Source: a virus (taxonomy: Duplodnaviria > Heunggongvirae > Uroviricota > Caudoviricetes). From it: a stretch of DNA of 41,819 nucleotides. The position numbers and the translations under genes are program-made. Shown here one piece after another: positions 22,252 through 37,649 of this stretch. The notes below the pieces were generated by a model that worked only from the letters and a program-made list of their open reading frames with translations, had not been told where the DNA came from and searched no databases. The stretch spans positions 1-41,819 of IMG/VR virus record IMGVR_UViG_2579779007_000006. One strand, written 5' to 3'. Position 1 is the stretch's first letter. The number at the start of each line of letters is the position of its first letter.

Positions 22252-22751
22252 GACTCGATGATTTTCAGAAACGGGTTAGTGGCTTTCTTCTGCCCCGCCA
22301 GGCCAATCAGACGCTGGCGGCTGCTGGGGTCGAGTCCGAGCATTGCCCCCGTGCTGCTCATCTCGGACTCCTGTTCTTTTTTGGCGGTCAGCTCCGGATT
22401 TTTGACCCTGCCGCCCATTGCACCGGTGATGGTGTTGCCCTGTATGGCAATATTTTTCACGGCACGTCGCCAGAACTCATAGGCCACGCACCACCGCTCA
22501 AGCACCGCGAGGTCAGTCACGCACAACAGGCCCTGACCGCAGAGTTCTTTGGTTGTCAGTTGCCACATGATCGTGGCGAGAGGGAGATTTTCTTCTGCGA
22601 ACCACTCCGGTGGCTCAACACCTTTGATGGGCGTAAAAACAGGTTCATCTTTATTCAGGGCTCGCTTGCCGGGGTTTCCGGCCAGCGCCTTGCGCGCCGT
22701 TGGCTTGGGGCGACGCCCGGAACGCCCCGCCGTTCCAGCCATATGCGGCAC
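22248..22751 (-). CDS. terminase small subunit
   Basis: 167 aa with a basic N-terminus, translationally coupled to the large subunit. Confidence 0.8.
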
Positions 22752-22867
22752 TCCTGGTTAAATTTCATTTTTCGCGGGTATAAAAAAACGATGGGGCGGG
22801 CAGTCCGGAAGACGTCAGGTCACAGGGATTTGACCCGCCCCTCCCCTCAGACAGTTGAGAATTATTA

Positions 22868-23218
22868 TCACTTTAACCGTTCACGGGTCGTCTTCGCCTT
22901 ATGACACGGCCAGCACAGACTCTGCAGATTACTGTCAGCATCAGTGCCGCCATGCGCTTTAGGGATGATGTGGTCAACAGTTTTCGCCTCACGCACCACA
23001 CCAGCACGCAGACATAACTGACACAGGCCTTTGTCACGCTTCAGGACACGCGCGCGGATACTGTCCCACTTCGAACCGTAGCCGCGCTGATGACGGGATT
23101 GTCCAGGTTTGTATTGCTTCCAGCCTTCGCTTTTGTGGCTTTCGCAATAGCCTGACGGGTCAGTGGTGGTATGGCGGCAGCCGCGAATACGGCAGGCTTT
23201 TGGGGTTCGTGGGGGCAT
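22868..23218 (-). CDS. HNH endonuclease (terminase-associated, HK97 gp74-like)
   Basis: 116 aa with CxxC...H...CxxC His-Me finger, located just upstream of the terminase genes. Confidence 0.85.
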   Translation of the reverse strand: MPPRTPKACRIRGCRHTTTDPSGYCESHKSEGWKQYKPGQSRHQRGYGSKWDSIRARVLKRDKGLCQLCLRAGVVREAKTVDHIIPKAHGGTDADSNLQSLCWPCHKAKTTRERLK

Positions 23219-23272
23219 TTAAATTTCTCCTTCAATCATTACTACTGGTCTACCCATCGTAATGGCAACAAA

Positions 23273-23299
23273 AAACCGCCCGTGGAAAGTGGGCGGTTT
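23273..23299 (-). terminator. rho-independent terminator-like hairpin
   Basis: aaaccgccc / gggcggttt perfect 9-bp stem with a T-run on the minus strand, immediately after the 23314..23634 gene. Confidence 0.55.
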
Positions 23300-23313
23300 A
23301 GGAGAGAATCGAT

Positions 23314-23634
23314 TTAAATCAAATTGCCGATAAATTTCGCCTGTACAGACAGAGTCGCACCAGGAACACCAGCAATTCCACCTTCAAGGTAATAACCATC
23401 CCCAATATCTCTCACAGAGAGATCCATCACATAATCGTTAAGGCCTGCAATAACGTTTTGTGCTGAAGGGTTATGGCGGGATACATGAAGTTTCAATACC
23501 CCATCTTGTACACGCCCCTGATAGGTAAACCCAAAATCACCACCATTAACCGCATTATCCTTCACAACGACCGTGCCATTGCCAACATCATTATGACCGC
23601 TTCTGAACACAACAAAATAAATGCCGTCTTTCAT
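23314..23634 (-). CDS. hypothetical protein (moron between lysis and packaging genes)
   Basis: 106-aa ORF followed by its own terminator hairpin; no family recognised. Confidence 0.5.
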   Translation of the reverse strand: MKDGIYFVVFRSGHNDVGNGTVVVKDNAVNGGDFGFTYQGRVQDGVLKLHVSRHNPSAQNVIAGLNDYVMDLSVRDIGDGYYLEGGIAGVPGATLSVQAKFIGNLI

Positions 23635-23726
23635 GTGTATAGTCCTTCAAAAAAATCACCCAAATCAGGTGCTTTGTATCTATTGGGTCATCACATATCA
23701 AATCAAGGAACAAAATAAAGTGAACA

Positions 23727-23996
23727 TCATTTTTTTTGCATGATGTGACCACGCTCAACTTCAATCCTTCTGATGTCAGCTTTATCGGTATTACACTGCG
23801 CCAATGCAGACAACAAGGCGGCATTCAGATCTAAGCTCGAGCCCCACGTAAAATGATCAGGTAAATCAGGCTGAGGGGTTTCAACCGTCAGGCTGGCTGG
23901 CAGTGGTGCCGTCGGAGTGTTCACGTAAACTGTCCGCGTACTTCCGCAACCGCTCAGCAGCGGCAGCAGGCACAAGACGTGAAGCACAATCATCAT
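23727..23996 (-). CDS. Rz1: o-spanin Rz1 (outer-membrane lipoprotein)
   Basis: Starts MMIVLHVLCLLPLLSGCGS with a lipobox (LSGC); lies in the +1 frame overlapping the 3' end of Rz. Confidence 0.8.
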   Translation of the reverse strand: MMIVLHVLCLLPLLSGCGSTRTVYVNTPTAPLPASLTVETPQPDLPDHFTWGSSLDLNAALLSALAQCNTDKADIRRIEVERGHIMQKK

Positions 23997-24273
23997 CCGC
24001 AACGGCCATTTTGATATCTTCCTGGGCTCTCTGTGACTCCTGTGCGATCTGCTGTTTTGCATGCTGGTTAGCCTCCAGAACTGTATTGACGATTTGCAGT
24101 GATTGCAGGACGTTATTGGTAATGGCCATTGCTGATCCAGCATTTCGTACAGACTCATCAGCACGTTTCTTTTCGTACTGATATTTGCTGTAGTAGTGGT
24201 TGGCTGACCAGATGAAAGAACCAATGACAGTAACGAAGAAAGCAGCGATAACCAGCTTATAGCTCAACTTCAT
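23881..24273 (-). CDS. Rz: i-spanin Rz
   Basis: 130 aa with an N-terminal transmembrane segment and coiled-coil region, directly after the endolysin. Confidence 0.8.
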   Translation of the reverse strand: MKLSYKLVIAAFFVTVIGSFIWSANHYYSKYQYEKKRADESVRNAGSAMAITNNVLQSLQIVNTVLEANQHAKQQIAQESQRAQEDIKMAVADDDCASRLVPAAAAERLRKYADSLREHSDGTTASQPDG

Positions 24274-24733
24274 TTACCCCCCCACCAGCCTCTTCAAACC
24301 GTGCAATCAGGTCACCGATTTTATGTTCATACTGACCGTAACCTGCACCAGGTAATGACGCCCAGATATTGCTGCAACGGTCGATTGCCTGACGAATATT
24401 GCCGCGGTCAATCATCGGTAAAGCGCCACACTCTTTAATCTGCTGCAGAGCTACAGCGTCCTGGCTTTCTGGAGAAAAATCTTTCAGGCCAAGCTGTTTA
24501 CGGTAAGCATCCCACCAGCGTGAAAGAAGCTGGTAACGTCCGGCGGCTGTTGACTTGAGTTTCGGGTTTAGCGTGACAAGTTTGCGAGGGTGATCGGAGT
24601 AATCAGTGAAGAGTTCACCACCAACAATAACGTCATAACCGTGGTTACGTGTCGGTTGTCGTCCGTTATCCGTTCCTTCTGACCAAGCCACCATATCGAG
24701 GAAAGCTTTACGCTGGGAATTTAGTACCTGCAT
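24257..24733 (-). CDS. R: endolysin, lambda R-type lytic transglycosylase
   Basis: Near-identical over most of its length to lambda R as recalled (NQRKAFLDM..AWSEGTDNGRQ.TRNHGYDVIVGGELFTDYSDHP...). Confidence 0.95.
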   Translation of the reverse strand: MQVLNSQRKAFLDMVAWSEGTDNGRQPTRNHGYDVIVGGELFTDYSDHPRKLVTLNPKLKSTAAGRYQLLSRWWDAYRKQLGLKDFSPESQDAVALQQIKECGALPMIDRGNIRQAIDRCSNIWASLPGAGYGQYEHKIGDLIARFEEAGGGVNEVEL

Positions 24734-24736
24734 AAA

Positions 24737-25063
24737 TTACTCCTTAGAGCCACCAAATTTGTTACCGATTACTCGCATTGCAGCCCCACGAATAGCATCG
24801 ACACCGATCAGCCCCACCCCACCACCAATGGCAACAGATAGTGATTTAGGCCATCCGACATACTCAAGAGCGGATGCAAAAGTCAGCGTCAGAGCACCAC
24901 AGAGTAGAATTTCGAGTGTTTTTCGCTTCCAGCCGCCACCACCGCCAAAATAGGCAATACGTAAACCAGCCATAACAATCGACATAATCACTGCGCCCAG
25001 CGGTGTGTCTCCACGCCACCAGCTCTGGACCAACTCCAGCCAGGTATTTGGGTTATGAGGCAT
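24737..25063 (-). CDS. holin
   Basis: 108 aa with hydrophobic helices and a charged C-terminus, immediately upstream of the endolysin. Confidence 0.8.
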   Translation of the reverse strand: MPHNPNTWLELVQSWWRGDTPLGAVIMSIVMAGLRIAYFGGGGGWKRKTLEILLCGALTLTFASALEYVGWPKSLSVAIGGGVGLIGVDAIRGAAMRVIGNKFGGSKE

Positions 25064-25463
25064 TTGTAGTTATCTCTCACCTCGCCAATACAGGAGGTGC
25101 AAATTGAGGGAACATCATGTACCGCAAATCAGAAGCGGAAACGTAAAAGAGGCCGAGCCAATGGATAACTGCGGTATAGACCAGGCTCAACAAATAGCCG
25201 GGTCCAGAAACGACAAACCCGCTCGACGGCGGGTTTAAGCTGTGTGGCGAAGTGACCACTCTTAACACGATACAATAGTTTTTGCGTACGCGTTAGCATT
25301 TTTGATGGAAGTTAATGGTTGTTAATCTTATACTCAGTAAACAAAATTTATGCCGCCTTGAGCATGATGCGACATTAGGCACATGTTTGGATCTTCCTCG
25401 AAGATTCGTGCGGTAGCTATGCTCAAAATCCAATCAGCTCATAAAACATACTATGGGTTTTAA

Positions 25464-26213
25464 ATGCTCATTCCAACATCTCTATCAAAACAACCAGTAA
25501 TCGAAGCTGCTTTCGAAATGCGTTTTTCTAAAGAAACACAAATATCGGAAATAGTTCCAGGGTTTCTTTTTCACGCTCTAGGTTGTACAAAACCAGTAAT
25601 TAGTTTACCACCCAGTCAAATACCTAAAAATGTTCGTGAGGGAGATGAACAATTACATTACGCAGTTGTCAGTCGCCTCGAAATCGAAGGGTACTATATT
25701 GGACTAAGTGACCATGGTGTTGTTGTATCCACCAGCACCAAATATCAAGGGTGGAGTCATTTTAGAGAAAAAATCATTCATGTATTAAATGAGCTTAACA
25801 AATTAAATTTAAATGACAACATCATCCGCTACTCATTAAAGTATGTAGATTTTTTCCCAAAAGAAGACGATTCTAATTTATTTGATAAGCTAAACGTCAG
25901 CTTAAATATGGCTGGCGAGTCTATGTCTAATTATCCGATCAATATCAGAATCGATAAAAATGAAGGCGCATTTCTAAATATAATTCAAATATTATCTCAT
26001 GCTTTAGTCATGTCAGATAATGGAGAATTTAATAAAAAAGGACTAATCCTAGACATAGACAGTATTAGGCAAATCACTAATACTGATGAAATAGATAAGT
26101 TTAAAAACGAACCAAAAAAAATTCTTGATGATCTTCACTCCTGTAATAAATTAGCTTTCTTTAGTTGCCTTAAAGAGTCAACAATTCAAGAACTAGAACC
26201 ATCCTACAAATAG
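25464..26213 (+). CDS. hypothetical protein, possibly TIGR04255-family; cassette gene A
   Basis: 249 aa, AT-rich, opposite strand to all flanking phage genes. The N-terminal PVIEAAFEMRF resembles the start of TIGR04255-family proteins from memory (unverified). Confidence 0.6.
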   Translation: MLIPTSLSKQPVIEAAFEMRFSKETQISEIVPGFLFHALGCTKPVISLPPSQIPKNVREGDEQLHYAVVSRLEIEGYYIGLSDHGVVVSTSTKYQGWSHFREKIIHVLNELNKLNLNDNIIRYSLKYVDFFPKEDDSNLFDKLNVSLNMAGESMSNYPINIRIDKNEGAFLNIIQILSHALVMSDNGEFNKKGLILDIDSIRQITNTDEIDKFKNEPKKILDDLHSCNKLAFFSCLKESTIQELEPSYK

Positions 26214-26228
26214 AAATGGTGGTATGAT

Positions 26229-26573
26229 ATGTATCCGTCTCATCATGTTTATCGAGCTCAACTTCAAGTATTAACTTTGGTTTTATATGGTCTGCATATA
26301 ACAGCATTAACAGACATTGCCCAAAATCAACAGCATGGTCCTCAACAAAGTTTAATCGTCAAAAATCACGCTTTGGAGTATAAGTCTTCAACTACCGATT
26401 CAGTTCATTCCATCACACAAACATATAAAGCAGGGAGCACAATCTCAGTTGATCAAAGACTTGCAGTCTCGATGACAAACTTTTATGAAAAATTATCAAC
26501 AAACCAGGTGTCTTTAGGCAGTGAAATAAATAAAGTCGTTCATGCTTCACTGTGGGATTTATACTTGGATTAA
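26229..26573 (+). CDS. hypothetical protein; cassette gene B
   Basis: 114 aa, 15 nt after gene A, same strand; no family recognised. Confidence 0.45.
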   Translation: MYPSHHVYRAQLQVLTLVLYGLHITALTDIAQNQQHGPQQSLIVKNHALEYKSSTTDSVHSITQTYKAGSTISVDQRLAVSMTNFYEKLSTNQVSLGSEINKVVHASLWDLYLD

Positions 26574-27191
26574 GTGATGAGTAATAACATTTTTGATATC
26601 GAGAAATTCAAAGATCAAATTCCATATTATTTAACAGCTCATCAAAAAGAAGGGCTAATAAATGCACTTAGAGATTTCCCTGAAAACACTAACTACTACC
26701 TTAGCAATTATCATGATGATCTGAAAAATGCTGCACTTCAGGGAGATATATTTAAGGAGCTTACAGTATATTCAATTAAAGGGACTAAAAAAACACGAGG
26801 AATTATATTAAGCAACAGTTGCGATATAGATACAAGTAATAATCGTGATGTGCCAATGCGTGCAGTCTTTGCTCCGTTAGTAAGTTTATCTAAGTTCGAA
26901 GCTATTCTTCTCTCCAACGGAGTTTCTAAGACTTCAATAGATAGCAAAATTGATGCTATAAGGAAGCAGTTAATTACTAATATTTTTTATCTTCCTGAAT
27001 CAGACAACTTAGAAGAATGCATCGTTTTTCTTGATGATGTATACCAATTACCAACGGAAGAATTACAAAAACTCTTGAATGATAAATGCAAAGCCATAAC
27101 TTTAAGTCAAGTTGGTTTCTACATTTTACTATTCAAAATATCTATTCACTTTTGTAGATTCCATGAAAACATACAACGATTCGATCATTAA
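26574..27191 (+). CDS. hypothetical protein; cassette gene C
   Basis: 205 aa; start (GTG 26574 or ATG 26577) abuts the stop of gene B; followed by a terminator. Confidence 0.55.
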   Translation: MMSNNIFDIEKFKDQIPYYLTAHQKEGLINALRDFPENTNYYLSNYHDDLKNAALQGDIFKELTVYSIKGTKKTRGIILSNSCDIDTSNNRDVPMRAVFAPLVSLSKFEAILLSNGVSKTSIDSKIDAIRKQLITNIFYLPESDNLEECIVFLDDVYQLPTEELQKLLNDKCKAITLSQVGFYILLFKISIHFCRFHENIQRFDH

Positions 27192-27218
27192 GGCGGTACT
27201 ACCGCCTTTTATTATTTT
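27192..27218 (+). terminator. rho-independent terminator of the three-gene cassette
   Basis: ggcggt-act-accgcc stem-loop followed by ttttattatttt, directly after the cassette stop codon and abutting the 3' end of Q. Confidence 0.7.
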
Positions 27219-27576
27219 ACACAAGTATACTTACAACCCCCTCTATAAAACCGATTGCGGTTTGCAACTCCTTCCTAATAGTGCCATCAGAGCACCTTCT
27301 CTTTTTGGCAATAGTGCGTAATGAGATACCAATAACAAAGTGGGCTATGATGAGCTCATATTCCTCTGGTTTATACCTTCTCAACCGAGCCACACAACTG
27401 TCTATCATAATGCCTTCGTCATCATCACACTGAATCCGTGACTTTTTGCCATGAGGTAAAAGCCCCTTGAAGCCTGCTGCTACCGACTGCCAGTCCACAC
27501 CACTGTTGTCTGCTGCAGCCCATGCTCCCCAGCGGTCCAATACTTCATACATATCACGCATCAACTTACTCCACAA
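27217..27576 (-). CDS. Q: late-gene antiterminator Q
   Basis: 119 aa with the Q-family motif (LDRWGAWAA...W...AAGFKGLL, CxxC) as in lambdoid prophage Q proteins. Confidence 0.8.
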   Translation of the reverse strand: MWSKLMRDMYEVLDRWGAWAAADNSGVDWQSVAAGFKGLLPHGKKSRIQCDDDEGIMIDSCVARLRRYKPEEYELIIAHFVIGISLRTIAKKRRCSDGTIRKELQTAIGFIEGVVSILV

Positions 27577-27579
27577 AAA

Positions 27580-28575
27580 TCAGGCCAGCACGCCAATTGC
27601 CAGCGCACGATCGATAAAACGAAATATCAGCTCCAGCTGGGAGCCATATCTCTCTTCAAATGCCACGGTATCCGCATGCAGCTCGTCGTGATGCTTTCTG
27701 CACAAAGGCAACACAAAGAGGTCATGCGCTTTTGTACCCATTCCACCCTGACCGTGACCTATCAGGTGGTGGGGATCATCAGCTGGCTTTCCACAACATG
27801 CACACGGCTGTGTCTTAACCCAGCGCGTGTATTTTTCATTAACCCAGCGGCGACGTTTTGGGCGTAACATAAAAGACTCCGGCGACTCCGGATCCACTTT
27901 CAGCGCCAGCACCTTTTTCGCTTTATCCTGGATGATGCTGGTGGCAGGAACCGAAGGCACAAGGTCACTTTCCCGGGCGACAGACGGCACAACAGGCCTC
28001 GGTAATCTCAGTGCCTTACGGGCTGCACTTTCCGGTAAGGCATCCGCCAGGTCATTACGAATCAGCCACCAGCACAGTTCCGGCATTGTCACAACGTGAC
28101 TGTCATCAAAACCGAGATCCCGACGCACAACAGACAACACCCAGCGGGCACAGTTATCCGTTGCCATTGATTCCAGCCGTTCCGTGAACTGATCGCGCAG
28201 CTGGTTATCGCAGTGCCAGCACAGACGGATTGCGCCCGGAGCGTGTCGCATTGTGGTCATGTTCTCGCTGTGCCAGTCGGAATGAGGCCACTGGCAGCCT
28301 TTTTCACGAAGTAACCAGCTTTCAAGACATTCCACGCCACCAGCACGACGGATCACTGCCTCATTGCGGAACACGGCCCGAACGGCAGGATCATCCGCCA
28401 GCGGTTGTGATGCCGCCGGAACGGCACCACTGGCGAAAGATGAGTAACGTTCCGGCTCAGGCTCCAGCAGGACACGCCCCTGCATAAACAGGGGCATCAG
28501 CTCTGAACCTGGCCTGAACAATACGATCCCCATACGCGGGGCAATTTCAGGGGTCAGTAGTGCTCTCACGGTCAC
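27580..28575 (-). CDS. DUF968-family protein (HNH-like C-terminus)
   Basis: 331 aa with C-terminal CACCGKPADDPHHL...H, common in lambdoid nin regions next to rusA. Confidence 0.6.
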   Translation of the reverse strand: MTVRALLTPEIAPRMGIVLFRPGSELMPLFMQGRVLLEPEPERYSSFASGAVPAASQPLADDPAVRAVFRNEAVIRRAGGVECLESWLLREKGCQWPHSDWHSENMTTMRHAPGAIRLCWHCDNQLRDQFTERLESMATDNCARWVLSVVRRDLGFDDSHVVTMPELCWWLIRNDLADALPESAARKALRLPRPVVPSVARESDLVPSVPATSIIQDKAKKVLALKVDPESPESFMLRPKRRRWVNEKYTRWVKTQPCACCGKPADDPHHLIGHGQGGMGTKAHDLFVLPLCRKHHDELHADTVAFEERYGSQLELIFRFIDRALAIGVLA

Positions 28576-28576
28576 C

Positions 28577-29374
28577 TCAATGAACGGTATCGAGCAGCTT
28601 TAACAGCTCAGGGAATCGGGATTCGAAGAAATGCGGCTGCGTCTCGCGCGGATTTGCGGGACTGGTGATGTTCTTGCCGAACATGCAGCCTTTCGCTGTC
28701 AGCGACCAGAATTTTTTGATGTTGTTAATCGCGGTACGACTGTATCGTTCGCGCTGCTCGACGATCCCCAGCTTCACCATCTGGTGATATGCCTGATTAG
28801 CTGTCAGGCGGATACAATACTGCTTCAGCAGTGCACTCAGTGACAGCGTGGGGCGGCTTGAGCCATCAGGCGCGTCAGCAGGAGCATCAATGGCATAGCG
28901 CGGTGCCAGATTCGGTAAGCCAACAGCCTCCTGGAGTTTCTGACAGGCTCCAAGCACTGAAGAGTTAGACAGGTTTAATTCCCGGCGCATAAAGTCCAGC
29001 AGAATCACACCAGCCTGCATCTTGTCAGCAGCCTGTCCGGATAATTTTTCCGGTGCACTGGTTACCATGTCGAAAGTACGGATCACCTTCAGATGGAATG
29101 ACGGGCTGATCCACATTGCATAGGCATACACCAGTTCTTTGCAGACATACGTCCCCTGGTTATTTCCGCCACGAATAACGTTAACTGGTTCTATATTGAC
29201 CGAGTTGCAAATCTGCAACTCGCTTATTAAACGTTCAGTTTGCTCATTGCGGAGCCAGAATGCAGGCTTATGCTTATCCAGAGAACCAGCAGCCCTGTGC
29301 AGATCGTTCAGGCTGTAACGCCCATAAGCATCACGACGAACTTCAATACCATCAATAACCATCAGATTATTCAT
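28577..29374 (-). CDS. KilA-N domain protein (antirepressor-like)
   Basis: 265 aa; N-terminal region (IDGIEVRRDAYGRYSLNDLHRAAG) is KilA-N-like. Confidence 0.6.
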   Translation of the reverse strand: MNNLMVIDGIEVRRDAYGRYSLNDLHRAAGSLDKHKPAFWLRNEQTERLISELQICNSVNIEPVNVIRGGNNQGTYVCKELVYAYAMWISPSFHLKVIRTFDMVTSAPEKLSGQAADKMQAGVILLDFMRRELNLSNSSVLGACQKLQEAVGLPNLAPRYAIDAPADAPDGSSRPTLSLSALLKQYCIRLTANQAYHQMVKLGIVEQRERYSRTAINNIKKFWSLTAKGCMFGKNITSPANPRETQPHFFESRFPELLKLLDTVH

Positions 29375-29393
29375 ACTTCGTTTCTCCTCTTAA

Positions 29394-29783
29394 TCAGGCG
29401 GCTGCACCCGCCGGTTTCTCGTACTTACTGATAGTGATCTCGACCTTCCCTTCCGGGATAACCGGTCCCCACTCCACCAGCATTCTTTTCACCTGACTGT
29501 CGTCTTCCCACACACCCGCGTGGGTCAGGGCGTCAAACAGCGCCTTGTTATAGTTGTCCAGATCGCGGATCCTGTTATCCGGAGGAAACAACACGATCTC
29601 CACTGAAGCAGGTGCCGACGTTGGTTTCGGCAGACGACGTAACTGCTCAACTATTGCTGCGCACGCCGCGCTCTGGAATTTTCGCCCCGCCGCGCTTATC
29701 AGGCTCTTACCAGCAAACGCCCCTTTGTTGGGGTGTCGCCAGTACGTGTTCACGCTGGGTGGAAAAGGCAGGATCAGCTTCAT
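29394..29783 (-). CDS. rusA: RusA Holliday-junction resolvase
   Basis: 129 aa beginning MKLILPFPPSVNTYWR, the characteristic RusA N-terminus, with conserved acidic residues. Confidence 0.85.
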   Translation of the reverse strand: MKLILPFPPSVNTYWRHPNKGAFAGKSLISAAGRKFQSAACAAIVEQLRRLPKPTSAPASVEIVLFPPDNRIRDLDNYNKALFDALTHAGVWEDDSQVKRMLVEWGPVIPEGKVEITISKYEKPAGAAA

Positions 29784-30106
29784 ACTTTCAGGCCCCTCTC
29801 ATGTAACCAGTGGGTTGCACGCAGCCTTGCGTTTTCCTCACCGGCAAGCAGTGAGCGGATAATCCCGACCGCCTCGCTGTCGTCGTCCTTCACCGCGGTA
29901 TGAAGCGTGATGCCCCGGGCCACGCCACGCTTTATCGTGATGACGCCTTTTTTCTCCAGTGCGCGAAGATGCTCCACCGCTGCATTCACTGAACGGTATC
30001 CCAGCATGGTTGCCACCTCCTGATTGGTTGGCGGGAAGCCACGTTCTTTCTGATAAGAAATCAGCATATCCAGCACCTGCTGCTGGCATTGAGTTAACGT
30101 CGTCAT
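29780..30106 (-). CDS. LexA N-terminal-like winged-helix DNA-binding protein
   Basis: 108 aa (QVLDMLISYQKERGFPPTNQEVATMLGYRSVNAAVEHLRALEKKGVI) resembles the LexA DNA-binding domain without a peptidase domain. Confidence 0.6.
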   Translation of the reverse strand: MTTLTQCQQQVLDMLISYQKERGFPPTNQEVATMLGYRSVNAAVEHLRALEKKGVITIKRGVARGITLHTAVKDDDSEAVGIIRSLLAGEENARLRATHWLHERGLKV

Positions 30107-30756
30107 GCCGCCATCTCCCTGACCAGTTTTTCTGCCTGCTGGCGAACCTGCGCCAGAAAGGCCTCACCACATGCCTCAAGTTCATCGCGCCCGATGTAGC
30201 TGATTGCCGGTCCCTTCCAGGTCTTGTCGAAAACAGCAATAGCACCAGCGAAGAAAGCGCCTGTCGGCACCTGCTTCTCATCCTTCGGGATAAACCAGGC
30301 AGGCAGTTCAAAACCAATACGCCCGCGAATAAAAGCAATATGATCTGCATCTTCCGGCCACCACACTTCGCTGGTGGCAGCTTTGATCAGGAAAACATAG
30401 CGCCCGCCTTTATCACGCATGGCACTGGCATGCTTCATGATGTAACGCATGCCGGTAATGTATTGCCCCTCATGCTGACTGGCGCGGCTGTATGGGGGAT
30501 TACCAAAGGCAGCACCTTTAAGCTCCGCAAGGCGTTCTGACCAGTCATGCGCCAGCGCGTTGTCTTCCGCCGTGTAATACGCAGCACATTTGGCGTTATC
30601 ACCGTCAGTGAACAGATCCAGAACAAACGGGCCAAACAGGGTGTTAATTCCCCAGAAAATGTTGTCCGGCGTGCGCCACTGATCGCCCACTTCCTTCAGT
30701 TCATGGGCTGGTTTGTTCCGCAGTTCCGCCAGCGCCTGGCAATATTTATTACTCAT
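30103..30756 (-). CDS. phage N6-adenine DNA methyltransferase (Dam-like)
   Basis: Contains the NPPY catalytic motif (FGNPPYSR); start taken at MSNKYCQ, sharing one base with the stop of the upstream gene (TAATG). Confidence 0.8.
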   Translation of the reverse strand: MSNKYCQALAELRNKPAHELKEVGDQWRTPDNIFWGINTLFGPFVLDLFTDGDNAKCAAYYTAEDNALAHDWSERLAELKGAAFGNPPYSRASQHEGQYITGMRYIMKHASAMRDKGGRYVFLIKAATSEVWWPEDADHIAFIRGRIGFELPAWFIPKDEKQVPTGAFFAGAIAVFDKTWKGPAISYIGRDELEACGEAFLAQVRQQAEKLVREMAA

Positions 30757-31250
30757 TAAGCCCCCACGTAATTCCCTGAGAGATACCACTCTTCACCTGA
30801 TGCAGCCTGCTTACTGCTTTTCCGTAAACACCGTTCACGACGCGCCAGAAAATTGTTTCGTTCTGGCTGGGAGTGGCTTTCACGGAATGCCGCCATCCAC
30901 ACGGTTGCAGCACGACGGTATAAGCCCCTGGACTCCAGTTCTTCAGCCTGGCGGGTCAGGCACAAAATCACCTGGGGATCGTTAGTGCCGACATAGAAAT
31001 TGCGCACAGGTCTGGTTTCTCGAACTGGTTGTGGTTCCGGTTCCTGCGCTCTCTCAGTCAGGCGCGGGAAATGTCTGCGTGTATCTCCTTCACAACGGTG
31101 AGCCACACGCCCACTCTGACGTAACTTGCTTGCTGACTGCAGAACGCGCTGCCGTGAGTAACCTGCAAAAGCATCCGCAATGTCTCCGGAAGTACATCCC
31201 GGATGGGCTTCAATGAATTTCTGAACTTCATTCAAAAGACTCATTATCAC
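30756..31250 (-). CDS. hypothetical protein in the helicase-loader position
   Basis: 164 aa directly downstream of the O-like gene; C-terminal region (RRAATVWMAAFRESH) may resemble PerC/ANR-type regulators (uncertain). Confidence 0.5.
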   Translation of the reverse strand: MIMSLLNEVQKFIEAHPGCTSGDIADAFAGYSRQRVLQSASKLRQSGRVAHRCEGDTRRHFPRLTERAQEPEPQPVRETRPVRNFYVGTNDPQVILCLTRQAEELESRGLYRRAATVWMAAFRESHSQPERNNFLARRERCLRKSSKQAASGEEWYLSGNYVGA

Positions 31251-32188
31251 CCCCTGAATCCTGCCGGGATCTGGCTGTAGTCCACGTTGTCGTAACTGGA
31301 TTTGAAGTACGGGTCTTCGCGTTTTTCGGTGTACGTGCTAACGGACGGTGATAAGCGCAGGGAAAGCTCATCCCATTTTTCCCGCAACTTCGACGGGCTG
31401 AGCACGTTACGGCACCAGAACGGATCGCGGCTGACGCGGCTGTACATCTCGCAGATTTGTTTGTGAGTACGACCATCCTGCACACACATCAGGCGAATTT
31501 CGTTTGCCCAGGCTGTCCAGTTCGGTTCTTTGGGACGAACCACCTCGCCGTCACATTCGGCGGCTTGCTCGTACAGGGCGATGATTTTTTTCCAGAGCCA
31601 CTGTGCGCAGGTCAAATCATCCTGCGTTCCCCACTGGCGCTTTTTAGGGCTGAATACAACCGCATCAGGATGGCGAGTTAAAAAATCCTGTTCATCCGTC
31701 TGCGTGTCCGGTTGCGAAGCGTCCGGACGAGAAGGTTTTTTATCTGACGGATCATGTTTTGATTTTACTGACGGATCCCCGCCAGATTCTGACGGGTGAA
31801 AACCCGCTTTTTTGCCAGATTTCGACGCATCAAATTTTGACGGGTCAGATTTTGATGCGTCAGATTTTGACGGGTCAGAATCTGACAGTTGAGAAAATGC
31901 CGCTGCCTGAAGCTTCGCAACGTTAAGCTGATAAACATTCGACGCATTGCGGTTACCCTGGCGACGCGCCTTACGCGTTAACCAGCCTTCTGCTTCCAGC
32001 CGTGCGATAGCCGTTCTGACGGTACTCATTCCCGCGCCAATCTGGCGGGCAATGGTTTCAATTGATGGCCAGCACACACCTTCGTCATTACTGAAATCAG
32101 CCAGGCGGGCCATAATTGCCACGCTGGATAATTTCATGCCTGATGCAGCGCAACCATCCCATACATAGCCGGTTAATTTAGTGCTCAT
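31247..32188 (-). CDS. replication initiator, lambda O-like (HTH N-terminus, internal repeat linker)
   Basis: 313 aa; N-terminal winged-helix region; central Ser/Asp/Lys-rich repeats encoded by the iterons; position after cro/cII-like genes. Confidence 0.7.
   Translation of the reverse strand: MSTKLTGYVWDGCAASGMKLSSVAIMARLADFSNDEGVCWPSIETIARQIGAGMSTVRTAIARLEAEGWLTRKARRQGNRNASNVYQLNVAKLQAAAFSQLSDSDPSKSDASKSDPSKFDASKSGKKAGFHPSESGGDPSVKSKHDPSDKKPSRPDASQPDTQTDEQDFLTRHPDAVVFSPKKRQWGTQDDLTCAQWLWKKIIALYEQAAECDGEVVRPKEPNWTAWANEIRLMCVQDGRTHKQICEMYSRVSRDPFWCRNVLSPSKLREKWDELSLRLSPSVSTYTEKREDPYFKSSYDNVDYSQIPAGFRG
31740..31890. repeat. tandem iteron-like repeats inside the O-like gene (putative replication origin)
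   Basis: At least seven direct copies of a roughly 15-bp unit (cagattttgacgggt and variants). Confidence 0.6.
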
Positions 32189-32197
32189 GACCGACCT

Positions 32198-32536
32198 CTA
32201 TTTCCCTGAATTTACGACGAAACTGTTCGAGCAGGCTGAAGCACTCATGCTCATAACCTTCGCGGAGGTAGATAACCCGTTGTGTTTCCGGCTCCCAACG
32301 AATGACTCTGACGGGCACTCCGTAGTGATCTTTGAACCAGCGGTTAACTTGTCGCAAAGGACTGTCTCCTTCTGCCGGTTGAAATCACCCACAGCCCACT
32401 CTGCAAAGCTGTGGGTTACAATTTCCCTGTCACCTGGTACATTTACTGCATAGCAATACTCCACCTTCGCTTTTCCACCCGGTACAGGAAGCGCAATCAG
32501 TTGCGAGCGACGGTAGTGTGTTGTTAAACTGTTCAT
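32198..32536 (-). CDS. hypothetical protein
   Basis: 112-aa ORF whose ATG overlaps the stop of the upstream gene (ATGA) and ends 10 nt before the O-like start; a plus-strand ORF (32181..32453) occupies the same DNA and cannot be excluded. Confidence 0.35.
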
Positions 32537-33084
32537 GCGTTAGTTTCTCCACAGTCACGACACGCCACGGCGCCCGGAGCTGCACACTCGCGGGCGTCAT
32601 TACTTTCTGAAATGCAAAAAATTTTGTAGACCAGTGCTGCATGCTCCTGCAGCTTCGAAATTGAGAGGTACAGCTCGTCGTTAATTGCTGTCTTCTCATG
32701 CGGTTCCACTACACCGTCTTCAATTGCTGAACGAATCTGTTTTGAATAACTGCCGATCTGTTCAATGACTTCCAGCAGGCGCTGGTTAATATCGGCGTTG
32801 TCCACATCCTCGACGTCAGGAAGAGACACAAAGACGCCATTTGCAGACTGCGCCACAGCGTCAGCAATGAAGTGAGTTCCACCAGCACGTTGCAAAATCA
32901 TTGCCCATCCCAGCGGGAAAATCTGATCGCCATCGGCACGAAGGCGGTTAAATAATGCGTTCTCTGTTACATCCAGCCAGTCAGCTGCTTCAGCGTAACC
33001 CCCCGGCAACGCTGCGATAGTTTTTCTGACAGCTTTCACGTACCACTTAGGCTGTTTTTCTACTTTCCAGTGATGCTTACCCAC
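32533..33084 (-). CDS. YdaT-like / cII-position regulatory protein
   Basis: Start assigned to the GTG preceded by AAGGAG (the longer ORF to 33189 would overlap cro by 83 nt); lies directly downstream of the Cro/YdaS-like gene. Confidence 0.5.
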
Positions 33085-33106
33085 GGCTATCTCCTTAAAA
33101 CTGTGG

Positions 33107-33355
33107 TTACTTTTCATCTGATGAATCTTTAATCTTTTGAAAAATATCTGGACGTAATTTTTCTTTTGATATGCCAGTGGTCTTTTCAATGAATATCGAG
33201 AGCTTTGCAGGGGGACGCTTTTCTCTGTTCAACCAGTTCCAGACATGTTGTTGCTTTACTAAATGACCGCTGCTGGCTGTGAGCTTCCGAGCCAATTCTG
33301 ATTGACCACCAGCCAGAGCGATTGCCTCCGATAAGGCTAATTGCTCAGGTGTCAT
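33107..33355 (-). CDS. Cro/YdaS-like HTH regulator
   Basis: 82 aa with an HTH (GGQSELARKLTASSGHLVKQ), divergent from the CI gene across an operator region. Confidence 0.75.
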   Translation of the reverse strand: MTPEQLALSEAIALAGGQSELARKLTASSGHLVKQQHVWNWLNREKRPPAKLSIFIEKTTGISKEKLRPDIFQKIKDSSDEK

Positions 33356-33490
33356 AGCTTTCTCCTTTTTAGGTAGTTAAGTTGTTACGAGTTGCAAGAA
33401 TACAACATTAACAACTTTTATCACAACTTTTAGGTGTTGGAAAGCTAAAACATAAAGTTGTAACCTCATCAAAAAAGAGAGGGATATGTT
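33356..33490. promoter_or_regulatory. OR/PR-PRM-like divergent operator-promoter region
   Basis: Intergenic region between divergent repressor genes carrying repeated AAGTTGT/ACAACTT half-sites. Confidence 0.6.
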
Positions 33491-34177
33491 GTGAAAACAC
33501 TGGCAGAACGATTAAAGATAGGTAGAGAGAAAGCTGGCATGAGCCAAGCTCAACTAGCTGAAAAAATTGGACTTTCACAACAATCTGTAGCCAAAATAGA
33601 GAATGGCGAAACTCTACAACCGCGCAAAATTAAAGAAATTGCAAAAGTTTTAGGTGTATCACAAAAGTGGTTACAACTTGGTATTGAAGACAACGCATCC
33701 ATACCTGATCTTGTTGTAAAAGAAGCAGAAAGCACCGCATTAGACCCCGATATTTTCGTAAACATTCCTGTTTTAGATGTCGAGTTATCGGCAGGTAACG
33801 GATGTCTGGCTGAAATAGTTGAATCAGCTATTGACTGGTTTCCGTTAAGAAGAGCAGATTTGAGAAAATCTGGCGTATGTGCATCTAATGCCAAGATCGT
33901 AAAAATATGGGGGAACAGTTTATTACCGGTTCTCAATAATGGAGATCTTGTTGCCGTTGATATTTCTCAAACCGTTCCTATTCGTGATGGCGATCTTTAT
34001 GCCGTACGAGATGGTGTATTGCTAAGGGTTAAAATACTTATCAACTTACCTGACGGTGGCTTGATTCTTAGAAGCTTCAACAAAGATGAGTACCCAGATG
34101 AAATACTCACCTTTGAAGATAGACGAGCCAGAATTCATGTTATAGGTAGGGTATTCTGGTCATCGCGAACTTGGTAA
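33491..34177 (+). CDS. CI-like prophage repressor (HTH plus S24 peptidase domain)
   Basis: N-terminal HTH (MSQAQLAEKIGLSQQSVAKIENGE) and a C-terminal LexA/S24-like domain (SLLPVLNNGDLVAVD...RVFWSSR). Confidence 0.85.
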   Translation: MKTLAERLKIGREKAGMSQAQLAEKIGLSQQSVAKIENGETLQPRKIKEIAKVLGVSQKWLQLGIEDNASIPDLVVKEAESTALDPDIFVNIPVLDVELSAGNGCLAEIVESAIDWFPLRRADLRKSGVCASNAKIVKIWGNSLLPVLNNGDLVAVDISQTVPIRDGDLYAVRDGVLLRVKILINLPDGGLILRSFNKDEYPDEILTFEDRRARIHVIGRVFWSSRTW

Positions 34178-35050
34178 TGCATCGAAAAGCATTTCTTCAG
34201 AAATAATTTTAAGTTTTGCACCATTATCATCCCTATAAGATATAGCCTTTTCGATCTTCCTTCCGTGACTTGAGAATTTCCAATCACGGGAGGAAAGCGT
34301 CCCAATTACTAAAAAATCCAACTTTTGAGTAATTCCACTACTGATGTTCCCACCAGCATTTTTAATCAAATTTTCAACTACGGCTCTCTTTCCTGCAACA
34401 AAAGTGCCTGTAAGACAATAGGTTTTACCCTCTAACTCTATCGAAGCCCCTACATCAATAGGCAGCCTGGTCGCCAAACCATCCACCACCCCACTTTCCA
34501 AGTCACATCCTGTGAAGTCTACTAATGCCTTATGTAGAGTTAAACTCTCATCTTCAGTAATAACACCATCTTTAAGAATTTCCTTTACAAGTGCATAAAG
34601 TTTTTTTCCTGGGTAGTTGTTCTTCAAAGCTCCATTTTGCTCAAGCCACCAATTAAGATATCTTATTTCTTCTTGAGTTAAGTTCCGATCAGCAATTAAT
34701 CCTTTACATAGTCCATTAAGTAAATGGACATCTACATCCTTGGAGTAAAAATCAATTTCAGGGATATCAAGAATTTCCCTCTGTATTTGGAGAAGGCTAT
34801 TTTTAAGGTCATCACGTTCTTCTGATGTGATTATTCCATCCGCAAGAATATCCGACACCCGTGCTGATAGACTTTTTATAACTCCATTATTGATAATCTG
34901 CTTTGCTTCAAGTAACCATGTATCTAAGTAAAGAACCTCCTCTTCACGGACAACTCCATCTGCAATGATTCCATCAATGATGCTAATCAAGTTAGCAAAT
35001 AACTTGTCCCGGTTCTGTGTGTAATTAAAAGCGTAAAGCGCGTCTTCCAT
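34160..35050 (-). CDS. hypothetical protein: four TerB-like DGxxxxEE helical repeats plus C-terminal BRCT-like domain
   Basis: Start placed at MEDALYAF (AGGAGG ribosome-binding site 5 nt upstream). Four roughly 45-aa repeats begin DG[VI][VI]xxEE; the C-terminus (GKTYCLTGTF...AGGNISSGITQKLDFLVIG...GAKLKIISEEMLFDAL) is BRCT-like. Confidence 0.65.
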   Translation of the reverse strand: MEDALYAFNYTQNRDKLFANLISIIDGIIADGVVREEEVLYLDTWLLEAKQIINNGVIKSLSARVSDILADGIITSEERDDLKNSLLQIQREILDIPEIDFYSKDVDVHLLNGLCKGLIADRNLTQEEIRYLNWWLEQNGALKNNYPGKKLYALVKEILKDGVITEDESLTLHKALVDFTGCDLESGVVDGLATRLPIDVGASIELEGKTYCLTGTFVAGKRAVVENLIKNAGGNISSGITQKLDFLVIGTLSSRDWKFSSHGRKIEKAISYRDDNGAKLKIISEEMLFDALPSSR

Positions 35051-35094
35051 ACAACCTCCTTTTTTTGATAATCCTTGCACTCCTTGGCTACTCG

Positions 35095-35160
35095 TTCAAA
35101 CCACATAAAGTTGTTGACAACATTCAAAACCACAACTAAATTACAACTTAAAGGTGTTAA
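35095..35160 (+). promoter_or_regulatory. OL/PL-like operator-promoter
   Basis: TTGACA (35114..35119), 17-bp spacer, TAAATT (35137..35142), embedded in the same AAGTTGT/ACAACTT repeats seen at OR. Confidence 0.55.
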
Positions 35161-35315
35161 AACAATGAGCAGGCAGGACGCCCACGAAGTAGCCGCCTGG
35201 GGCATATGAAGTCCAGGATGATTCGTTAGCAACAAAAAAGCGCCCTACAGGACGCTTAGCTCTTTAACAATCTGGTCCCCATCAACAAGTAACTGATAAC
35301 TTGAGGAGGTGTGAA

Positions 35316-35522
35316 ATGCACAAAACAGAACCAAAAATCGTCGCGCCCGGATACACAAATGAGGAAATTTACGAGTGGATGGCAAAGAAGCTGGCAGCTA
35401 TAAACCAGCTTCGTGAAGTGCTGTCTTATCGACAGGAAACAATAGACTCCTTAAAAAAACTGGATCAGGAAATCACGGTTTTATCACAGGATGTTACTTT
35501 AGATATTGTGCAGACAAATTAG
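35316..35522 (+). CDS. small hypothetical protein, first gene of the early-left operon
   Basis: 69 aa; GGAGG ribosome-binding site 7 nt upstream of ATG; predicted helical/coiled-coil. Confidence 0.55.
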   Translation: MHKTEPKIVAPGYTNEEIYEWMAKKLAAINQLREVLSYRQETIDSLKKLDQEITVLSQDVTLDIVQTN

Positions 35523-35928
35523 GATCCCATTCATTTTCGTCAAAATCATCAAAGTGATGAATTTGTGATCTCCAGTCTCGATAATCTAAAAATTTCTGGG
35601 CGGTTACGCTTATTTTATCAAGCGTGAGTTCATCCTGAATTGAAAGAAGAAGTTCATCAAATTTCATCTCATTAATCTGTTTTGGCATCCAGTGATGCTT
35701 CATCAGAATAAGGTGAACCAGAGCTTTTTTCCCATTCAACTGATTATAGGGAGTGCCGAATTTCTTCCGGTGCTCATGTAAGACAAGGTCCAGAAGAGTA
35801 AGTAATGTTGCCCTTGATTCAACTTTGCTTATTTCGACTGATGACACTACCCCACTGATTTCAATGCCCCGATACTTTCCAACATTTTCACAGTGGGATT
35901 TGTACAGCGTATAGATATTACCGGACAT
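35494..35928 (-). CDS. hypothetical protein
   Basis: 144-aa AT-rich ORF on the strand opposite the early-left operon, converging on the small plus-strand gene; no family recognised. Confidence 0.5.
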   Translation of the reverse strand: MSGNIYTLYKSHCENVGKYRGIEISGVVSSVEISKVESRATLLTLLDLVLHEHRKKFGTPYNQLNGKKALVHLILMKHHWMPKQINEMKFDELLLSIQDELTLDKISVTAQKFLDYRDWRSQIHHFDDFDENEWDPNLSAQYLK

Positions 35929-36214
35929 TTCTTTTCCTTTTGCGTTGTTGGGGATAACCAGATTAACCGAATCCTTGTTGTTGGGGAATAACCAGGTCCA
36001 CCTCGCCTGATGTGGCTAAAAGCAGGCACATAACAGCTAAGTATTTTCAACCAGAGAGAATCCTTAGCGTTGTGGTGAATGCGGCTCAGCGCACGCGGGT
36101 TAAGGTTGAGGCTGACAGTCGACCTTCTGTGGATACCCACCCGTCTGGTGTGCAACCTTCGCCAGGCACCGGGAGGCACCCGGCACCACAACTTTATGCT
36201 GTGTGTAGTCCCGG

Positions 36215-36259
36215 CGGTACCAGTTTGTACCCTTGCTTCCGGCTGGTACCGTCCTTTTT
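36215..36259 (+). terminator. terminator-like hairpin
   Basis: cggtaccag / ctggtaccg 9-bp stem with a 19-nt loop followed by TTTTT. Confidence 0.4.
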
Positions 36260-36348
36260 ACAAAACAGAGAAGAGCATCACCGGACGACGGGCTCATAAC
36301 CCAATCCATCCGGGCGGCTGCCACCGCAGGTGTTCTTCTCTGTTTTGT
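36260..36348. repeat. perfect 15-bp inverted repeat flanking a 59-bp GC-rich spacer
   Basis: acaaaacagagaaga (36260..36274) and tcttctctgttttgt (36334..36348) are exact reverse complements. Confidence 0.6.
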
Positions 36349-36396
36349 GGAGAAACTAATCGGCCTTGCAGGGTCGATATGATGAGGAGCAGCAAA

Positions 36397-36759
36397 ATGG
36401 CTAGCGAACGCAGTACTGATGTGCAGGCATTTATCGGGGAGCTGGACGGCGGCGTATTTGAAACCAAAATCGGCGCAGTTCTCAGTGAAGTCGCTTCCGG
36501 TGTGATGAACACGAAAACCAAAGGTAAGGTCTCACTCAACCTGGAAATCGAACCATTTGATGAGAACCGTGTGAAAATCAAACACAAACTCTCATATGTT
36601 CGCCCGACTAACCGCGGGAAAATTTCCGAAGAAGACACCACCGAAACGCCGATGTATGTCAATCGCGGTGGTCGCCTGACTATTCTGCAGGAAGACCAGG
36701 GACAGTTACTGACTCTTGCCGGTGAACCTGACGGAAAACTCCGCGCAGCAGGTCGTTAA
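36397..36759 (+). CDS. YfdP-like prophage protein
   Basis: Start at MASERSTDV with a GAGGAG ribosome-binding site; the longer upstream extension looks non-coding. Confidence 0.65.
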   Translation: MASERSTDVQAFIGELDGGVFETKIGAVLSEVASGVMNTKTKGKVSLNLEIEPFDENRVKIKHKLSYVRPTNRGKISEEDTTETPMYVNRGGRLTILQEDQGQLLTLAGEPDGKLRAAGR

Positions 36760-36824
36760 TATCGTTTTTAATTAACTGATTATTTATCTCATCACTGAAT
36801 ATCTTTATATAGTGAGGACTTATT

Positions 36825-37649
36825 ATGTCTCAGAACTTAGACGCAACCGCAATTAATCAAATCCATGCCCTTATTTCTGCTCAGGGTGTTAATGAAATTA
36901 TCAGTAAGATTGGTGCCGATGCTGTGGCATTGCCTGAGAATTTCCGCATTCATGATCTGGAAAAATTTAATTTAAATCGCTTCCGTTTCCGTGGTGCGCT
37001 TTCCACTGCCAGCATCGATGACTTTTCCCGTTATTCTAAAGATCTTGCAGATGAAGGCACCCGCTGCTTTATCGATGCTGATAATATGCGTGCCGTCAGT
37101 GTGCTTAACCTGGGTACTATTGATGAACCAGGTCACGCAGATAACACCGCCACACTCAAACTGAAAAAGACAGCACCGTTCTCTGCTCTGTTGTCTGTTA
37201 ACGGCGAGCGTAACTCCCAGAAGTCACTGGCAGAATGGATTGAAGACTGGGCCGACTATCTTGTGGGCTTTGATGCTAATGGTGACGCTATTCAGGCAAC
37301 AAAAGCGGCTGCGGCTGTCCGTAAAATCACGATTGAAGCAAACCAGACCGCTGATTTTGAAGATAATGACTTCAGCGGCAAACGCTCCCTGATGGAGTCT
37401 GTCGAAGCGAAGACCAAAGACATTATGCCAGTGGCATTTGAATTTAAATGCGTTCCGTTTGAAGGTCTGAAAGAACGTCCGTTTAAATTACGCCTCAGTA
37501 TTATCACTGGCGATCGTCCTGTACTGGTTCTGCGCATTATTCAGCTGGAGGCGGTGCAGGAAGAAATGGCTAACGAATTTCGTGATCTGCTTGTTGAGAA
37601 ATTCAAGGACAGCAAAGTAGAAACCTTTATTGGTACTTTCACCGCCTGA
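36825..37649 (+). CDS. YfdQ-like prophage protein
   Basis: 274 aa; resembles the CPS-53 YfdQ family as recalled. Confidence 0.65.

Follow-up and report, generated by a model that had tools for sequence, protein, structure and literature searches.

Within a 41,819-nucleotide stretch of viral DNA (IMG/VR record IMGVR_UViG_2579779007_000006, positions 1 to 41,819; hereafter the window), which represents a prophage of the SfIV/SfII/SfV type with xis and int at its end adjoining proA, the segment from 33090 to 35159 is very probably a self-contained lambdoid immunity cassette, in which dimers of the repressor CI would bind 15-bp dyads and control the right promoter (PR), the promoter for repressor maintenance (PRM) and the left promoter (PL). 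The cassette is a lambdoid immunity region with a 434-type repressor whose specificity has not been characterised before, and is otherwise an ordinary phage immunity switch. The genes cro and cI are divergent with 135 bp between them, which contain the right operator region (OR); a gene for a BRCT-domain protein follows, then a 110-bp intergenic region with the left operator region (OL) and PL, and then the early-left genes, with yfdP through int downstream of PL. OR and OL are ~1.7 kb apart, and the same genes are called by the Prokaryotic Genome Annotation Pipeline (PGAP) in an identical E. coli chromosome. The sequence comparison shows the sites, their conservation and dyad symmetry, their association with this repressor, and promoter-like elements in a fixed arrangement; from these we infer binding by CI (and Cro), where transcription starts, and whether the BRCT gene is activated or repressed. 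Coordinates of the individual features are collected in Table 1.

Comparison with related prophages indicates that the cassette moves as one piece. The flanking DNA is 98.4% (31000-33089) and 99.2% (35160-37000) identical to phage SfIV, and in the same comparison the interior between 33089 and 35160 has no similarity to SfIV. More generally, the serotype-converting prophages SfIV, SfII and SfV of Shigella and E. coli, which reside at thrW/proA, share a backbone 95-99% identical on both sides and the same gene order (a ymfL/cII-like gene, replication genes, yfdP-yfdT, xis and int), but they differ from the window in cro, cI and operators, lack the BRCT gene and have a terminator after cI. At the equivalent location SfIV has a different cI and its own GTACC-type repeat, present at OR as well as around the TTGACA promoter of SfIV; the motif reads TGTACC/GGTACA at OR and near a PL of the form TTGACA-17-CATAAT (locus L001, 3300-3430 and 4110-4170), and SfIV is a handy contrast case for co-variation of repressor and operator. 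Because the operators are swapped along with the repressor while the backbone stays constant, 33090-35159 appears to be an exchangeable module, an immunity cassette exchanged as a unit. It is carried by 48 of 5,426 complete E. coli genomes (~1%) and also occurs in Serratia, Citrobacter, Proteus and Providencia prophages. E. coli Res13-Sevr-PER07-33 and STEC799 are examples of lysogens. No publication specific to the cassette came up in literature searches on BRCT proteins, prophages, repressors and operators or on the immunity region of SfIV/SfV.

The evidence for operators begins with a repeated heptamer. Exact copies of AAGTTGT/ACAACTT number 14 in the window against 5.8 expected; four lie in the cro-cI intergenic region (33379, 33411, 33423 and 33455) and two just past the BRCT gene (35108 and 35143), which amounts to six in the 245 bp of the two intergenic regions against 0.25 expected (Poisson P ~3e-7). 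The expectation was derived from 20,000 dinucleotide shuffles of these two regions, none of which held more than 3 copies, and a sequence-only reading of this DNA that had noted repeated heptamers on both sides of cI is thereby upheld. Its heptamer needs one correction: this is not the whole site, but consists of two spacer bases and the stronger half of a dyad of 15 bp. The binding unit would be the dyad ACA(A/C)C-N5-G(G/T)TGT, with a centre made up of A/T only. The window has two perfect matches to ACAMC-N5-GKTGT, designated O-a (in OR) and O-c (in OL), and no others; their companions O-b and O-d are among seven one-mismatch matches, the remaining five being as many as shuffles predict. The centres of O-a and O-b are 24 bp apart, and those of O-d and O-c 43 bp. 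Alternative registers of 14 bp (434-like) and 16 bp (CAAC-N8-GTTG) fit fewer sites than the 15-bp register, and none of the sites fits ACAA-N6-TTGT. The heptamer at 33673, inside cI, was judged to be a chance copy because it is absent beyond near-identical loci, being missing where the cI of relatives is <=93% identical, and the copy at 36188 because it lies outside the cassette in sequence common to SfIV, within the STnc100-like match described below. A half-site copy at 35117 is not conserved in relatives, and no LexA box with <=1 mismatch is found in 32900-35600, the interval around the BRCT gene and the operators.

Phylogenetic footprinting argues independently for the same sites. More than 100 loci with a cI 57-100% identical to that of the window were collected from IMG/VR and GTDB genomes, the sources being E. 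coli, Serratia, Proteus, Providencia and a single assembly that bears the label Pseudomonas lundensis. Except in the most distant relatives, the heptamers stand at nearly constant offsets from cI (-112, -80, -68 and -36 upstream; +1617 and +1652, or +1659, downstream), and the geometry of sites and promoters is essentially constant over 50 distinct OL and 44 distinct OR sequences, with 1-nt spacer shifts in the most distant. The alignment consists of near-invariant islands in diverged DNA: the dyads, at fixed positions in these loci, are conserved at 0.87-0.97 against baselines of 0.45 for third codon positions of cI and 0.35 for the PL spacer. In 15 distinct relatives O-c reads ACACCTTAAAGTTGT, both half-sites having been swapped in place, and in distant relatives O-d is the perfect palindrome ACAACATAAAGTTGT; the conserved unit is therefore dyad-symmetric. 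The alignment of the motif across relatives, which had been suggested as a check, thus yields dyads at fixed positions, and the assignment of OR and OL in the sequence-only reading gains support from the motif positions beside cI, the dyad conservation, the cassette exchange and the fit to a 434-like recognition helix.

The last of these points connects the dyads to CI. The 434 repressor is the best PDB match to the N-terminal domain of CI (1PER/2OR1, E 4e-13, 29/65 residues identical, 45%), and Gln30-Gln31-Ser32 of CI align with Gln28-Gln29-Ser30 in the 434 recognition helix. Arg45 corresponds to the retained 434 Arg43, and Lys35 stands where 434 has Gln33. The residues for autocleavage are present (Ala101-Gly102, Ser143 and Lys181), and CI appears to combine a 434-like helix-turn-helix with a self-cleaving domain of the LexA type. 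The outer bases of 434 operators read ACAA. The dyad motif can be linked to CI because its half-site starts ACA(A) and CI keeps the 434 Gln-Gln-Ser helix. The likeness to phage 434 extends to the A/T-rich centres of the sites, the use of one motif at both OR and OL, and the divergent arrangement of cI and cro. A 434 operator is a 14-bp dyad in which the repressor contacts the outer bases, which are conserved, and reads the centre indirectly, without contact (PMC1636474); the sites here differ in being 15 bp, ACAA-N7-TTGT, with C at position 5. Cro also sets the cassette apart from 434, as it is of the YdaS/lambda-Cro type; a candidate assignment as 434-Cro-like was rejected, since Pfam gives YdaS and the only match of a PDB search is Xfaso-1 Cro (E 0.08), 434 Cro not being found.

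Conserved promoter elements are interleaved with the dyads. The near-consensus rightward sigma-70 promoter reported earlier beyond the BRCT gene was recovered by a consensus scan and corresponds to PL; its hexamers and 17-nt spacing are almost invariant in the 50 distinct OL sequences, the sequence of the spacer varies, and the promoter is also present in loci L050 and L003. O-c spans ~-6 to +9 of PL. Opposite cI, the PR predicted here has a counterpart in L050 that reads TTGTGA-18-TATAAT (10/12 consensus) at the place equivalent to 33426->33397, and the -10 hexamer of the predicted PRM is TAAAAT in distant relatives. Start sites are predicted near 33390 (minus strand) for PR, 33473 (plus strand) for PRM and 35149 (plus strand) for PL. 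Because O-a overlaps the PR -35 and abuts the PRM -35, CI should shut off PR and perhaps stimulate PRM. In the switch we propose, CI dimers would fill the perfect sites O-a and O-c, with O-b and O-d filled cooperatively. CI at O-a would block PR at its -35 and stimulate PRM, which would in turn be limited by O-b lying over the PRM core, like lambda OR3. CI at O-c would block PL, the early promoter for yfdP through xis-int, at its start site, and CI at O-d, 43 bp or about four helical turns upstream, would help O-c to repress PL. CI at O-d would also activate the BRCT gene in the lysogen, much as lambda CI bound to OR2 switches on PRM; this is the least secure step. RecA-stimulated cleavage at Ala101-Gly102 would lift repression.

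The accessory gene that the sequence-only reading had placed between cI and OL is indeed embedded there, between cI and O-d, and it travels with the repressor. Its product matches phrog_3989, a family of unassigned function, over its full length (E 1.5e-128, residues 2-295), diverges in step with cI (55-100% identity), and has homologues in IMG/VR that, when at least 73% identical, are syntenic and in every case beside this cI family. The AlphaFold model has a predicted local distance difference test score of 75 and matches only BRCT domains in PDB and BFVD, the Foldseek matches being BRCT domains of RFC1, LigA and XRCC1; the N-terminal 190 residues of helical repeats match no family in Pfam at any E up to 10, an NCBIfam search of the protein returned BRCT-type matches only, and PADLOC gave a weak partial match to the candidate PDC-S48, for which no mention was found in the literature. 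Natural deletion variants (L035-L049 and L071, cI 93% identical) retain the gene as a 34-codon in-frame remnant, MDDALLITQGTLSFRDWKLSNHGRKIEKAGNNGN (for example L035, 3715-3903). Since these variants keep OL, with the distal sites moving with cI to +875/+910 and the OR-OL interval cut from 1.7 kb to 0.9 kb, the BRCT gene is dispensable; it appears to behave as part of the immunity module and yet to be dispensable to it. One cassette with a frameshifted BRCT gene also has a point change in O-c, ACAACTTAAAGGCGT (L023 and L128, a single IMG/VR contig in opposite orientations). A full-length homologue, 33% identical over 95% of its length, is orf2 of Vibrio phage K139 (L132, 2280-5308), which has cI on one side and glo on the other within the mapped lysogenic operon, cI-orf2-glo-int. 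In Pseudomonas phages, Lodos among them, shorter homologues adjoin int.

The stretch from the BRCT start codon to O-d has just three conserved blocks: the Shine-Dalgarno sequence with the start codon, ATCCTTrCA, and TTGAnn abutting O-d. On the minus strand ATCCTTrCA reads TGyAAGGAT, at an identical position in the 50 distinct OL sequences, and in 46 of these the 17-nt spacer from the putative -35 to AAGGAT is constant in length and variable in sequence. The other four come from BRCT-deleted variants and are decayed, with TG changed to GG, AAGGAT changed to AAGGGT and the -35 shifted. O-d thus lies between the back-to-back -35 elements of PL and of the predicted BRCT promoter, ~42-43 bp from both predicted start sites, the leftward one being near 35064. 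Transcription of the BRCT gene from the OL region under repressor control, which the sequence-only reading had suggested, is plausible on these grounds. On the sign of this control we favour activation by CI over repression, because the geometry is activator-like, no operator lies over the promoter core, the elements decay where the gene is lost, and the K139 homologue belongs to a lysogenic operon.

Several observations weigh against the switch as proposed. Neither OR nor OL has a third full dyad at <=1 mismatch, so that each region holds two, whereas 434 has three operators in each and lambda three adjacent ones. The half-sites at 33379, 33402, 33411 and 35132 have no partner under the 15-bp dyad model. 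The dyad is 1 bp longer than that of 434, and docking of the repressor on DNA cannot simply be copied from the 434 complex. The predicted PRM and BRCT promoters match only 7-8/12 consensus positions and fall below the scan threshold, and sequenced phage isolates include none with a cI more than 45% identical. As to the BRCT gene, the decay of its promoter elements in the deleted variants is a single evolutionary event, and O-d is about equidistant (42-43 bp) from the BRCT promoter and from PL, which must be repressed, so that geometry does not by itself fix the sign of control.

A different account of the BRCT promoter is that it is repressed by CI or independent of it, the gene being an early lytic gene or a constitutive moron beside OL. 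This comes close to an even chance. O-d touches the leftward -35 and could occlude the promoter, and O-d together with O-c could form a repressive complex across 35094-35157; the promoter in the window, with its TG extension and a -35 that matches at 5/6 positions, might also not need an activator. However, O-d ends exactly where the BRCT -35 starts, and its centre near -43 gives an activating rather than an overlapping geometry, the classical one of lambda OR2 and PRM. No operator lies over the -10 or the start site, the K139 homologue is co-transcribed with cI in the lysogenic operon, and the BRCT gene occupies the place of lambda rexAB, genes that are expressed in the lysogen. Activation by CI remains the sign that we favour. 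The fuller proposal, that the BRCT gene is a third co-evolving component of the module, activated by CI at O-d and serving in the lysogen as a damage-sensing modulator of induction or in anti-phage defence, is offered tentatively and is rather doubtful as a whole.

A second alternative concerns which protein reads the repeats. Besides the dyads, the cassette has orphan half-sites that are conserved. The one at 33379-33385 is found in all relatives, its neighbouring bases not being conserved, and these half-sites may serve Cro or assist cooperative binding of CI. That they cluster over PR (33379, 33402 and 33411) and upstream of the PL -10 (35132), where they do not fit a CI dyad model, and that Cro diverges together with cI and the sites across relatives, could mean that the repeats are read mainly by Cro or by another protein of the cassette, or that CI and Cro read different subsets, the dyads and the orphan half-sites. 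We regard this as improbable as a replacement for the CI-based switch: the half-site starts ACA as in 434 repressor operators, and CI retains the Gln-Gln-Ser helix, whereas Cro is of the YdaS/lambda-Cro type with a weak PDB match (E 0.08) from which nothing can be predicted for its binding. Moreover, the operators of known lambdoid switches serve both CI and Cro, and a role for Cro would therefore be an addition to the reading by CI and not an exclusive alternative. In relatives with a cI 71-84% identical, there is an extra exact AAGTTGT in overlap with the cI start codon, GTG (AAGTTGTG); where these relatives carry this lone half-site the window, at 33488-33493, reads ATGTTGTG. Finally, that the conservation reflects promoter elements and A/T-rich composition only, with the heptamers a by-product rather than a protein-binding repeat, is scarcely credible, for although several heptamers touch promoter hexamers (GTTGT-TGACA, GGTGT-TGGAA) and the regions are A/T-rich, shuffles that preserve dinucleotides never approach six copies, the motif recurs in both orientations over four dyads, the O-c half-site swap keeps the dyad while changing the transcribed-strand sequence, and the repeat in SfIV is a different one despite the shared flanks and a TTGACA promoter.

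The preferred arrangement, with CI at four dyads, also invites comparison with lambda. Like lambda, the cassette combines a CI carrying an S24 autocleavage domain with an operator that abuts the -35 of the maintenance promoter, OR sites 24 bp apart, a distal OL that controls an early-left operon ending in xis-int, and an accessory gene within the OR-OL interval, a gene that phage 434 lacks between cI and OL. Unlike lambda rexAB, which is read from PRM, the BRCT gene is on the strand opposite cI and so cannot be read from PRM; it has its own predicted promoter divergent from PL, and its product is not homologous to RexA or RexB. A homologue of N, which lambda has, was not seen. The BRCT-protein homologue of K139 likewise directly adjoins cI, but K139 is a P2/HP1-like phage with a repressor that is unrelated in detail, and its orf2 shares the strand of cI and is transcribed together with it. 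In the window cI and the BRCT gene are convergent and overlap by 18 bp (34160-34177), with no convincing terminator on either strand; in SfIV, by contrast, a strong terminator directly follows cI. As a result, transcription begun at PRM may run into that begun at the BRCT promoter, or antisense RNA may arise.

Immediately beyond the cassette, PL is followed by a conserved, structured leader. Its inner hairpin covaries, with three pairs showing compensatory changes (CCUGG/CCAGG, CCGGU/ACCGG and CCCCA/UGGGG), and the leader is common to phages of other immunity types, including SfIV, SfV, SfII, ST64B, mEp237 and ZF40, and to ~1,500 E. coli genomes. It matches no Rfam family at E up to 1. It was considered as a candidate HK022 put-like RNA but is not demonstrably one, since its covariance model matches nothing in HK022 22000-35000 and detects no further copy in the window. 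Further along, a hairpin (35238-35257) that scores, on the minus strand, as an intrinsic terminator is followed by GCTCTTTAACAA, which we take to match the rrn boxA consensus. Leader and boxA-like element downstream of PL are as expected for an early operon, and the hairpin and boxA-like element together (35238-35270) are a possible nutL-like site. A gene of the ECs1072 family (144 aa, 35494-35928, minus strand) lies on the opposite strand within the presumed PL operon and overlaps the first PL gene (68 aa, 35316-35522) at the latter's 3' end; its own transcript would end at the terminator-like hairpin of the minus strand, read from 35257 to 35238. Between the ECs1072-family gene and yfdP, the plus strand at 36039-36262 has a sub-threshold Rfam match to STnc100 (41.6 bits against a gathering score of 47, E 7e-7), which contains the chance heptamer at 36188.

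Table 1. Features of the immunity cassette and the adjoining PL leader, in window coordinates
Feature	Position	Strand	Basis or remark
Immunity cassette (cro, OR, cI, BRCT gene, OL/PL)	33090-35159		Bounded by flanks shared with SfIV
cro-like gene, 82 aa, YdaS/Cro family	33107-33355	-	WP_000187185.1; Pfam YdaS_toxin E 7.8e-15; PGAP 'transcriptional regulator'
Orphan half-site AAGTTGT	33379-33385	+	~+5 to +12 of predicted PR; constant 11 nt beyond PR -10
Predicted PR -10, TATTCT	33397-33402	-	TATAAT in most relatives; position constant in 44 distinct OR sequences
Two ACAAC half-sites (33402-33406, 33411-33415)	33402-33417	+	Within PR core; conserved block ATACAAC..AACAACTTTT
Predicted PR -35, TTGTGA	33421-33426	-	Overlapped by O-a; equivalent site in L050
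Operator O-a, ACAACTTTTAGGTGT	33423-33437	dyad	Perfect 15-bp match; conservation 0.96
Predicted PRM -35, TTGGAA	33437-33442	+	Abuts O-a; invariant GTGTTGGA block; putative promoter
Operator O-b, AAAACATAAAGTTGT	33447-33461	dyad	One weak half; one mismatch; conservation 0.97
Predicted PRM -10, TAACCT	33461-33466	+	18-nt spacer; T, A and final T conserved in all relatives; putative promoter
cI repressor, 228 aa, 434-like helix-turn-helix + S24 autopeptidase	33491-34177	+	WP_000853319.1; HTH_3 E 1.4e-15; Peptidase_S24 E 6e-15
BRCT-domain gene, 296 aa, N-terminal helical repeats + C-terminal BRCT	34160-35050	-	Pfam BRCT E 1.3e-6; PGAP start 35050
Predicted extended -10 of BRCT promoter, TGcAAGGAT	35071-35079	-	Conserved ATCCTTrCA in a variable stretch; putative promoter
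Predicted -35 of BRCT promoter, TTGAAC	35094-35099	-	TTGATT in relatives; abuts O-d
Operator O-d, ACCACATAAAGTTGT	35100-35114	dyad	Between two back-to-back -35 hexamers; one mismatch; conservation 0.95
PL, TTGACA-17 nt-TAAATT	35114-35142	+	10/12 consensus; best promoter-like site in 33000-36500
Orphan half-site	35132-35136		Just upstream of PL -10; conserved
Operator O-c, ACAACTTAAAGGTGT	35143-35157	dyad	Over PL start site; perfect match; conservation 0.87
Conserved structured PL leader, ~62 nt	35166-35227	+	Outside cassette; starts 7 bases right of junction
boxA-like GCTCTTTAACAA in PL leader	35259-35270	+	Sole exact copy in window

The cassette defines an immunity specificity that was uncharacterised before, in its repressor, operator sequence and promoter layout. 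It is also a natural variant of the 434 system, with the same Gln-Gln-Ser helix, one extra base pair between the half-sites and Gln33 replaced by Lys, and such a variant is useful for studying the evolution of spacing and indirect readout. The most promising leads are how the BRCT gene is regulated and what it does. Its product is a conserved BRCT-domain protein linked with prophage repressors in two phage groups that are unrelated to each other, and the way in which it is regulated is a concrete, testable prediction. If the fuller, tentative proposal is correct, one repressor dimer would repress PL together with O-c and activate a divergent neighbouring promoter, and the BRCT protein would act in the lysogen, either as a modulator of induction that senses DNA ends or DNA damage or as a defence against other phages.

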